64,000 bases of DNA from Escherichia phage phAPEC8, in sequence record NC_020079.1; one strand, 5' to 3'. A model generated the notes under the pieces. That model did not search any database, was not told the DNA's origin, and saw only the letters and a list, made by a program, of their open reading frames with translations. Positions 29,306 to 29,735 of this stretch are shown here, in pieces. The translations under genes were made by a program, and so were the position numbers. Numbering within the stretch: position 1 is the first letter of the stretch; the number at the start of each line of letters is the position of its first letter.

Positions 29306-29334
29306 TTGACTTATTATTTTTTATATGTTAAGAT
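29306..29334 (+). promoter_or_regulatory. sigma70-like promoter
   Basis: TTGACT, 17-nt spacer, TAAGAT; followed by TAGGAGG RBS and the ATG at 29356. Confidence 0.45.
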
Positions 29335-29355
29335 AAAGTTTAGGAGGATTTTATT

Positions 29356-29652
29356 ATGCCTAAACTAAAACGTGGTCGTGGAAGACCAACAGCCGAAATG
29401 CAACAGATTTACGCAATGGATGCGGCGCAAGCAAGTGTAAAAGAATTATTTGCAGAGCATTATTTAGAAGCTATGCGGTATATTGTTGAACTTGTTAATG
29501 ATAAGGATGCAGCAAAACCTCTCCGCTTCCAAGCAGCTAAAGCTATTAAAGAGCAAGTAGAAGAATGGTTAGAAGAACATTATGAAGCTATGGAAGAAGA
29601 AACCCCTGCCGTGCAGAATACAGATGACGTTCCTAAAAAGATCGTAATCTAA
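29356..29652 (+). CDS. small DNA-binding-type protein with AT-hook-like KRGRGRP motif (98 aa)
   Basis: ORF track; N-terminal PKLKRGRGRPT; own promoter and tandem terminators. Confidence 0.4.
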   Translation: MPKLKRGRGRPTAEMQQIYAMDAAQASVKELFAEHYLEAMRYIVELVNDKDAAKPLRFQAAKAIKEQVEEWLEEHYEAMEEETPAVQNTDDVPKKIVI

Positions 29653-29667
29653 TCCCTCTCCTCTCTT

Positions 29668-29697
29668 GGGGCTTTGCCCCTCCTCCTTGTTATTTTT
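29668..29697 (+). terminator. rho-independent terminator (first of a tandem pair)
   Basis: GGGGC-TTT-GCCCC hairpin followed by a T-rich tract. Confidence 0.5.
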
Positions 29698-29701
29698 AAC
29701 A

Positions 29702-29735
29702 CCCCTCTCCGAAAGGTTAGGGGCTTTTTTATTTT
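29702..29735 (+). terminator. rho-independent terminator (second of the tandem pair)
   Basis: CCCCT...AGGGG hairpin followed by TTTTTTATTTTT. Confidence 0.55.

Follow-up and report, generated by a model that had tools for sequence, protein, structure and literature searches.

A conserved 98-residue protein of Escherichia phage phAPEC8 as a possible small terminase subunit without a helix-turn-helix

Small terminases (TerS) are described as having a helix-turn-helix (HTH), a hairpin core, a ring of 8 to 12 subunits and a C-terminal portion that is flexible and binds the large terminase (TerL), and their gene lies beside terL and is usually co-transcribed with it (PMC9611059). In PaP3 TerS, the α4-α5 hairpin and the following β-strand form the oligomerisation core, to which an acidic disordered tail is attached (PMC7672466). 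The resolved core of the T4-like 44RR protein (PDB 3TXS) is a simple helical hairpin that forms 11- and 12-mers (PMC9611059), and gp1 of the Rhodobacter capsulatus gene transfer agent (RcGTA) is a TerS without HTH that was validated genetically and biochemically (PMC6854486). We found no paper assigning a small terminase to the phage subfamilies Stephanstirmvirinae or Vequintavirinae. Here, we analysed a stretch of 64,000 nucleotides of Escherichia phage phAPEC8 (record NC_020079.1; hereafter the window), and in particular one small gene (29356-29652) for a 98-residue protein with an N-terminal KRGRGRP motif. A preliminary description of this gene had correctly delineated it and had suggested that its product could be either a small terminase subunit or a DNA-condensing packaging factor. 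The window belongs to a Phapecoctavirus (phAPEC8-like) genome of the subfamily Stephanstirmvirinae, with about 39% G+C.

Our best explanation is that the 98-residue protein is a minimal small terminase variant devoid of HTH, an oligomer that displays arms directed at the minor groove; we propose this picture tentatively, at somewhat less than an even chance. We propose that the protein works in a TerS-like manner and is probably a remote and stripped-down relative of the Sf6/PaP3 type.

Likeness to small terminases

AlphaFold2 predicted for the protein a disordered arm, a long α-hairpin and a disordered tail (Table 1). Outside residues 1-12 it is net acidic. Within the arm motif, G9, R10 and P11 were invariant in all 33 superfamily sequences; further conserved positions were Y36, A39, the stretch D-x(5-6)-[RK]-L-x-A-A-K-x-I-K-E and the extreme C terminus, of which the final Ile is invariant within Stephanstirmvirinae. 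The profile of phrog_3330, a family of unassigned function, matched residues 1-97 (full length, E 1e-34) and also all 25 members of our family alignment; Pfam, NCBIfam and PHROGs yielded nothing significant beyond it. A profile search of 1.84 billion representative proteins retrieved 19 clusters only, small unnamed proteins of 63-127 residues with the exception of one of 755.

In the Vequintavirinae, homologues are rV5 gp070 and PVP-SE1 gp82, whose annotation notes the similarity to rv5_gp070. The homologue of the rV5-like phage BP9, with 112 residues and 100% identical in rV5 variants, follows the same plan of arm (KKRRRRGRPLK), hairpin and acidic tail with a conserved PFTTEI tip. Hhalign related the two branches with probabilities of 97% (single sequence) and 98.7% (five-sequence alignment). 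By tblastn, the gene was found in 134 phage records. The C-terminal 482 residues of TerL matched exactly 134 records at 60% identity or more, and the gene was present in 134 of these 134 Stephanstirmvirinae records. From the equal counts it looks like a core gene of the subfamily.

Three partly independent comparisons, Foldseek and hmmsearch against the PDB and hhalign, all pointed to the small terminases of PaP3 and NV1 (PDB 6W7T, 7JOQ). In Foldseek with the monomer model, their chains took ranks 1 to 4 (E 0.7-1.7, RMSD ~10 Å; E 0.7-2.7 over the PaP3/NV1 hits), a ranking that is weakly informative for a model of two helices. Searches of the PDB with a single sequence or the first profile gave nothing significant. 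In hmmsearch with the family profile against 177,635 PDB sequences, NV1 and PaP3 TerS came first and second with E-values of 0.32 and 0.35, which fell to 0.067 and 0.097, still not significant, once the Vequintavirinae branch was added to the profile. Against an alignment of 23 NV1/PaP3 relatives (PF20901, Sf6_terminase), the hhalign probability rose from 66% with the first profile to 83% with an intermediate local alignment and 87.5% (P 3.6e-6) with the broadest one. An rV5-type sequence alone, 40% identical to the consensus, reached 68.6% over the same columns. Control comparisons with reversed or column-shuffled alignments scored 11-17, as compared to 33 for the real one.

The match connects residues 28-68 of the window protein with residues 64/66-107 of NV1/PaP3, which is exactly the α4-α5 hairpin (PaP3 residues 64-105), and the two sides share the motif D-x(5-6)-[RK]-L-x-A-A-x-x-I in it. 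An acidic disordered C-terminal tail and a position upstream of terL are likewise common to both. Relatives of the protein matched three small-terminase families of PHROG weakly (phrog_641, phrog_2538, phrog_10899; E 0.007-0.07), and the matches to folds in BFVD include several proteins named small terminase. We grade the homology to PaP3/NV1-type small terminases, as read from these sequence comparisons, as probable and not as established, since no value is significant after database correction and the hhalign target was chosen after the PDB ranking. A third homology search with a wider profile reached no named terminase.

For the oligomeric state, the family alignment was tiled nine times to a gap-free alignment of 882 columns and predicted as a tandem fusion with AlphaFold. 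The pTM was 0.69, as compared to 0.45 for the monomer; all nine hairpins had pLDDT values above 90, and all arms and tails were disordered. The hairpins of this model appear to pack side by side and not into one compact bundle, a result on lateral contact that does not extend to ring closure. Foldseek with the nine-copy model returned only solenoids of the HEAT/importin type at a TM of ~0.12. The hairpin core expected of a TerS (PMC9611059) is present at the level of prediction and weak homology only.

The protein also departs from each of the described small terminases. PaP3 and NV1 TerS have an N-terminal three-helix HTH (residues 18-63) and a β-strand that builds a nine-stranded barrel, and the model of the 98-residue protein contains neither; in their place stand a 12-residue GRP arm and a second helix of greater length, and the similarity remains below database significance. 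RcGTA gp1 is, by description, similar in build: about 100 residues, nearly all helical, a coiled-coil hairpin without HTH, and a C-terminal segment binding TerL to which the tail of the 98-residue protein may be likened. It differs in that it lacks a basic N-terminal arm, binds DNA only non-specifically and is encoded directly beside terL. T4 gp16 and 44RR TerS serve a TerL of the Terminase_6 type, as would the 98-residue protein, but gp16, of about 160 residues, has further domains at both termini and is encoded immediately next to gene 17; T4-type TerS were not among the top 50 Foldseek matches in the PDB. Lacking an HTH, adjacency to terL and a match to a curated model, the protein was not filed in any known TerS family.

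The protein had been called AT-hook-like. The RGRGRP core of its arm is indeed invariant, the arm contains the core R8-G9-R10-P11 of the eukaryotic AT-hook (HMGA type, PF02178), and it shares with HMGA proteins the basic residues N-terminal to this core (here K3, K5 and R6) and an acidic tail. The proline, however, is followed by T-A-E and not by basic residues, so that the core is not basic on both sides as in an AT-hook, and there is one arm per chain, carried by a hairpin that would oligomerise. The AT_hook model of Pfam had no match in the window peptide; its sole sub-threshold match was in the relative P0040 (12.3 bits, cut-off 17.4). Judged on the residues, the label is descriptive only.

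Another arm of comparable type is found in DUF5681 (PF18932), small phage proteins in which an N-terminal G-x-P-x-G-R-P-K-G arm precedes helices and which include gp022 of Shigella phage Sf17; several of them are among the BFVD fold matches. A link between the two was rejected at the level of sequence: the families had no detectable profile similarity (hhalign probability 0.3% against the Sf17 member), and DUF5681 was not among the Pfam families listed for any member (25 of 41 families). The function of DUF5681 is itself unassigned. In Sf17, a FelixO1-like phage whose type of TerL is ~34% identical to that of the window, the DUF5681 protein (locus L015, 4974-5345; 123 residues, GQSGNPSGRPKG arm and predicted helices) has its gene at the start of the tRNA array, beside that of a DUF2828 protein with an RNA-binding annotation. 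By this analogy of place, it would be the positional counterpart of the 98-residue family.

If the protein is a small terminase, its mechanism may be pictured as follows. The long α-hairpin (residues 13-81) would be the counterpart of the Sf6/PaP3 α4-α5 oligomerisation core, with the copies arranged side by side, as prediction and weak homology suggest. The resulting ring would show one flexible KRGRGRP arm per subunit in place of HTH domains. These arms could contact the minor groove of A+T-rich DNA and thereby favour the phage genome with its ~39% G+C over the DNA of the host. The acidic tail with its hydrophobic C-terminal tip may recruit or regulate the T4-type large terminase encoded ~1 kb downstream.

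The cassette and its genomic setting

The preliminary description had placed the gene in a self-contained expression unit. This cassette is real and conserved. Four lineages were compared: the window, phiWec186, Justusliebigvirus Bas60/PaulScherrer and Klebsiella phage phi1_175008. The promoter TTGACT-N17-TAAGAT lies where it had been placed and has 9 of 12 consensus matches in addition to the TG extension. A promoter scan found 8 sites where 8.7 ± 3.3 were expected from shuffled sequences; the consensus match by itself is therefore not above chance, and the reality of the promoter rests on conservation. Its position and TG extension are kept in all four lineages: phiWec186, Bas60 and phi1_175008 have a -35 element, a 17-nt spacer and a TG-extended -10 element with differing hexamers, and 18-21 nt separate the end of the -10 element from the ATG throughout. 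The strong ribosome-binding site was confirmed, too, as AGGAGG 8 nt before the ATG.

Of the two tandem terminators that had been described, both hairpins are present and recur in all four phages, but only the second has canonical form. The T-run of hairpin 1 begins 9 nt past the stem; it is thus not a canonical terminator, and such a role for it is uncertain. Its pairing was nevertheless kept by compensatory changes (GGGGC/GCCCC, GGGAAC/GUUCCC and GGGAGC/GCUCCC, including Bas60 and the Klebsiella phage). With its GAAA loop and -12.3 kcal/mol, hairpin 2 is almost invariant in the four lineages and is an annotated terminator in Escherichia phage vB_EcoM_ASO2A. The downstream spacer is 76% identical among the four lineages and thereby better conserved than the C-terminal tail of the protein; Rfam contains no known RNA matching either of its hairpins. 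Most homologues at 27-36% identity on metagenomic contigs retain a terminator-like hairpin downstream of the gene, and some are equipped with their own promoter-like site.

Table 1. Coordinates of the cassette elements, the parts of the protein and the flanking landmarks in the window
Feature	Position	Strand	Description
Terminator closing the upstream tRNA array	29264..29289	+	7-bp stem AGCCTCC/GGAGGCT (29264-29282) and T-run; left cassette boundary
Sigma70-type promoter	29306..29334	+	-35 TTGACT 29306-29311, 17-nt spacer ending TGt, extended -10 TGtTAAGAT (TAAGAT 29329-29334)
Shine-Dalgarno AGGAGG	29342..29347	+	8 nt 5' of ATG; GGAGG invariant in the four-genome alignment
Coding sequence, 98 aa, phAPEC8_00143 homologue, phrog_3330	29356..29652	+	starts MPKLKRGRGRPT; homologues down to 27% identity keep length and architecture
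Codons 1-12, disordered basic arm	29356..29391	+	MPKLKRGRGRPT; low pLDDT; putative minor-groove contact
Codons 13-81, α-hairpin	29392..29598	+	helix 13-47, turn 48-53, helix 54-81; pLDDT 82-94 (AlphaFold2)
Codons 82-98, acidic disordered tail	29599..29649	+	ends in conserved hydrophobic tip PKKIVI; putative partner-binding segment
Hairpin 1, GGGGC-TTT-GCCCC	29668..29680	+	-9.1 kcal/mol; conserved pyrimidine tract just before
Hairpin 2 and T-run, intrinsic terminator	29702..29735	+	stem CCCCT..CC-GAAA-GG..AGGGG 29702-29723, then directly TTTTTTATTTTT; right cassette boundary
Large terminase gene, putative partner of the 98-residue protein	30651..32726	+	Terminase_6N type, insertion in Walker A

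In the local order, 11 tRNA genes (27143-29148) and their terminator are followed by the 98-residue gene, a 56-residue open reading frame (ORF; phrog_15229), an i-spanin and o-spanin pair (phrog_4297 and phrog_1267) and the large terminase gene (phrog_979, Terminase_6N), which starts 999 nt 3' of the 98-residue gene; beyond it lie genes annotated in Bas60 as portal, prohead protease and scaffold. Around the cassette, 601 bases are 100% identical in the Escherichia phages Mt1B1_P17, nieznany, tuntematon and vB_EcoM_ASO2A, all Phapecoctavirus. In ASO2A the counterpart is ASO2A_145, a 'hypothetical protein' similar to phAPEC8_00143 with a predicted terminator on each side.

The isolation of the unit after the tRNA operon, another element of the preliminary description, is real, the tRNA array having its own terminator at the left (-13.3 kcal/mol, z -3.4; kept in Bas60), yet it is ordinary for this genome: similar TTGACA-type promoters with nearby terminators are found before the tRNA blocks, before the ORF that comes next and before the genes for portal, protease and tail. 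As the same sigma70-like promoters precede late genes, the promoter class is uninformative on the timing of expression. With a host-type promoter and a terminator of its own, the gene would be transcribed separately, like other short units of the late region.

The setting was measured in 21 loci, 12 of which reach far enough to include terL; a locus search with a narrower alignment had given 9 loci, mostly of close relatives. In all 12 informative loci, terL lies downstream on the same strand, at 1.4-6.7 kb (by tblastn, with the stretch of terL beyond the Walker A motif as end point), with varying material in between: spanin genes, small ORFs, tRNAs and HNH genes. Of the 21 loci, 20 have a tRNA gene at no more than 1.8 kb, in most cases at no more than 600 nt. 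Arrays of 14-23 tRNAs enclose the gene in Mydovirus, Seunavirus (PVP-SE1) and Certrevirus; in three genera of Vequintavirinae it stands between the first 3-5 tRNAs and the rest (L020 2980-3330, L021 2980-3345, L022 and L023 2977-3351), and locus L008 has tRNAs on both sides. This synteny persists down to 27% identity. It is the strongest signal of the genomic context and was absent from the preliminary description: among the protein genes next to or within the tRNA arrays of Stephanstirmvirinae and Vequintavirinae, this family is the only conserved one. In Pectobacterium phage CB7 the gene is kept ~2 kb upstream of terL with a single tRNA (PMC7344957), and in locus L012, with no tRNA nearby, the order is gene, one ORF, spanin genes, terL. 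The simplest reading is that the gene is fixed at the head of the rightward late module and that tRNA genes are gained and lost around it.

In the inspected stretches around terL of ASO2A, Bas60, phi1_175008, BP9 and CB7, no small terminase is annotated. For the linearisation of genomes, the authors of the BASEL collection chose the small-terminase gene, or the operon that contains it, as the site (PMC8594841). The Bas60 record begins at the i-spanin gene, and the inspected stretches at either record end contain no annotated small terminase. Ksap2, the KpAvs2 activator of Stephanstirmvirinae (Bas60_220), described as resembling the TerL ATPase domain (PMC11564622), was considered and is a different gene; the Bas60 homologue of the 98-residue protein is bas60_0276.

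Neighbouring features

Several further observations concern the surroundings of the cassette. Extended -10 sites of the form TTG(A/C)nn, 17/18 nt, TGnTAnnnT start on the + strand at 25861, 26347, 26904, 27491, 29306, 29742, 44868, 50358 and 58406. This promoter-like series extends over the tRNA region and the late module and suggests, on sequence grounds, that host sigma70 drives transcription of many short units, each of which ends in a terminator of its own. The unit next to the cassette (29742-29963) comprises the 56-residue ORF (29793-29963), a promoter TTGCAA, 18 nt, TGaTAAGAT and a ribosome-binding site, and these two signals are likewise kept across the four lineages.

In the tRNA array, the tRNA-Sec model of Rfam matched 27529-27615 (+) with 37.4 bits, below its gathering score, and ARAGORN made no call there. 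Because ASO2A has at the corresponding place, directly before tRNA-Ser(GCT), an annotated tRNA-Ser(TGA), the array of the window probably holds 12 tRNAs rather than 11. Behind the last tRNA, 29235-29289 (+) gave a sub-threshold match to the RyhB small RNA over the full length of the model (29.4 bits against a gathering score of 55, E 0.015). It spans the spacer and the terminator stem 29264-29282, and a TATAAT lies at 29231-29236. This stretch could be a short terminator-bearing small RNA or merely the trailer of the tRNA operon. The spacers flanking the 98-residue gene tolerate insertions: in Klebsiella phage FBKp34 a gene for an accessory protein of an IS200/IS605-type transposase lies between the homologue and a possible Rz spanin gene (L018 6022-7146), and in phi1_175008 a gene annotated as tail protein lies between the tRNA array and the homologue (L017 1606-2448).

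The large terminase gene of the window carries an insertion of 159 residues (30777-31253, codons 43-201) exactly inside Walker A, GGAAG / C43...N201 / SGKS, whereas the Walker A of the rV5-like BP9 TerL is uninterrupted (GGAAGSGKS). The boundaries, with a first Cys, a last Asn and a Ser next to it, are those of an intein; neither Pfam nor PDB sequences gave a match to known inteins. In relatives, a split divides terL close to the same N-terminal ATPase region (L012 7430-8605, L014 11764-14392, L008/L009 9357-11006, and H103, phage nepoznato), and in L012, L014 and phage nepoznato an HNH endonuclease gene separates the pieces or immediately precedes them. For phage CB7, splicing of such introns has been described (PMC7344957). 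These arrangements suggest a hot spot for mobile elements at the P-loop region of terL among these phages.

Alternative functions and significance

A number of points weigh against the proposal of a small terminase. The best E-value in the PDB was 0.067 and no database E-value was significant; the hhalign P-value was obtained on a target picked after viewing the PDB ranking, and the alignment extends over no more than ~41 columns of a helical hairpin, a kind of fold that readily arises by convergence. Profile searches against terminase small-subunit families, which the preliminary description had recommended, left the window protein without a Pfam, NCBIfam or PHROG TerS model above threshold, the weak PHROG matches being those of its relatives. 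The model consists of two long helices after the 12-residue arm, without HTH, and no HTH family matched. The protein is also smaller than a typical TerS of 15-21 kDa (PMC9611059), and in the nine-copy model the covalent fusion forces the copies into proximity. Its gene is not adjacent to terL (1-7 kb apart) and forms a separate transcription unit with its own promoter and terminator; in Vequintavirinae it lies within the tRNA array at a distance of kilobases from terL. The main counter-argument to packaging is the tRNA link, which is at least as conserved as the link to terL, the tightest synteny being with tRNAs. The arrangements in CB7 and L012 soften this argument. The suggestion of a small terminase gains suggestive though not conclusive support from the first ranks in the PDB and Foldseek comparisons, the hhalign result and the position upstream of terL; no terminase model passes its threshold.

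Much of the same evidence can be read differently. A basic arm together with an acidic tail recalls HMGA and phi29 p6, and the invariant GRP core with arginines on its flanks would suit an abundant protein that has nothing to do with packaging but binds DNA in an architectural or regulatory role, as a coiled-coil oligomer whose AT-hook-like arms lie on A+T-rich phage DNA. Its possible roles would be to counter silencing of the H-NS type, to organise replicating DNA or to modulate transcription of the tRNA and late region. The strong promoter, the consensus ribosome-binding site and the terminators, suggestive of high autonomous expression, the location at the boundary from the metabolic/tRNA region to the late region in all relatives and the distance to terL are in line with such a role. 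We regard it as the main rival, though less likely than a small terminase. The searches with family models returned no similarity to a known nucleoid or regulatory family, the sole recurrent similarity is to small terminases, and the conservation of a hydrophobic tip on the flexible tail suggests a specific partner protein. No repeated operator-like motif came to light either, although no search was aimed at such motifs. The tRNA synteny, for its part, would be explained across two subfamilies if the GRP/arginine arm bound tRNA precursor RNA, in the manner of an extended AT-hook or an ARM-like motif, or the promoters of the arrays. We give little credit to this idea, and as little to its extension, in which the tail recruits a host or phage partner for expression, read-through, processing or protection of the tRNA precursors. 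A tRNA within 1.8 kb in 20 of 21 loci, the embedding in the arrays of Mydovirus, Seunavirus and Certrevirus, the tRNAs on both flanks in L008 and the persistence to 27% identity speak for it, but the gene is retained in CB7 with its one tRNA and in L012 with none nearby, and the order upstream of terL is just as conserved. Arrays moreover expand and contract around fixed genes, so that the linkage may be positional only, and no RNA-binding fold or family match was found.

The other function offered in the preliminary description, a virion-internal protein that condenses DNA and is packaged with the genome, would fit the basic N terminus and the vicinity of head and packaging genes. It is not supported by the mass spectrometry of CB7: the Certrevirus homologue CB7_250 was absent from the 26 virion proteins identified by ESI-MS/MS, among which the product of the adjacent gene, CB7_251, was detected (PMC7344957). 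Such an absence speaks against a DNA-condensing protein packaged with the genome and agrees with a terminase subunit, which the virion does not contain. Beyond its first 12 residues the protein is, furthermore, net acidic, and no similarity to internal head proteins was found, which leaves this function very improbable. One GenBank record, that of phage SKA64, names the product 'RNA polymerase sigma factor RpoS', and TIGR02394 does match with an E-value of 0.0095; the match covers 65 residues of a model with 285 positions, and its score of 15.5 bits, where the cut-off is 378.7, effectively refutes the name. A protein of 98 residues is too short for sigma regions 2 and 4, and nearly all other records among those listed say hypothetical.

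The phAPEC8-like and rV5-like myoviruses, of Stephanstirmvirinae and Vequintavirinae respectively, are widely isolated candidates for therapy, with at least 134 and at least 226 matching records in the phage collection. Should the protein turn out to be no terminase, the tRNA arrays would still hold a strictly conserved protein with DNA or RNA binding, a core function yet to be explained. If it is a small terminase, the annotation gap of a missing packaging subunit would be filled in two widely used phage subfamilies, and a handle would be gained on how these phages choose the DNA to be packaged, which bears on the risk of transduction. A terminase ring that recognises DNA through flexible minor-groove arms instead of a helix-turn-helix would also be a new solution, and one that is directly testable with a protein of 98 residues.

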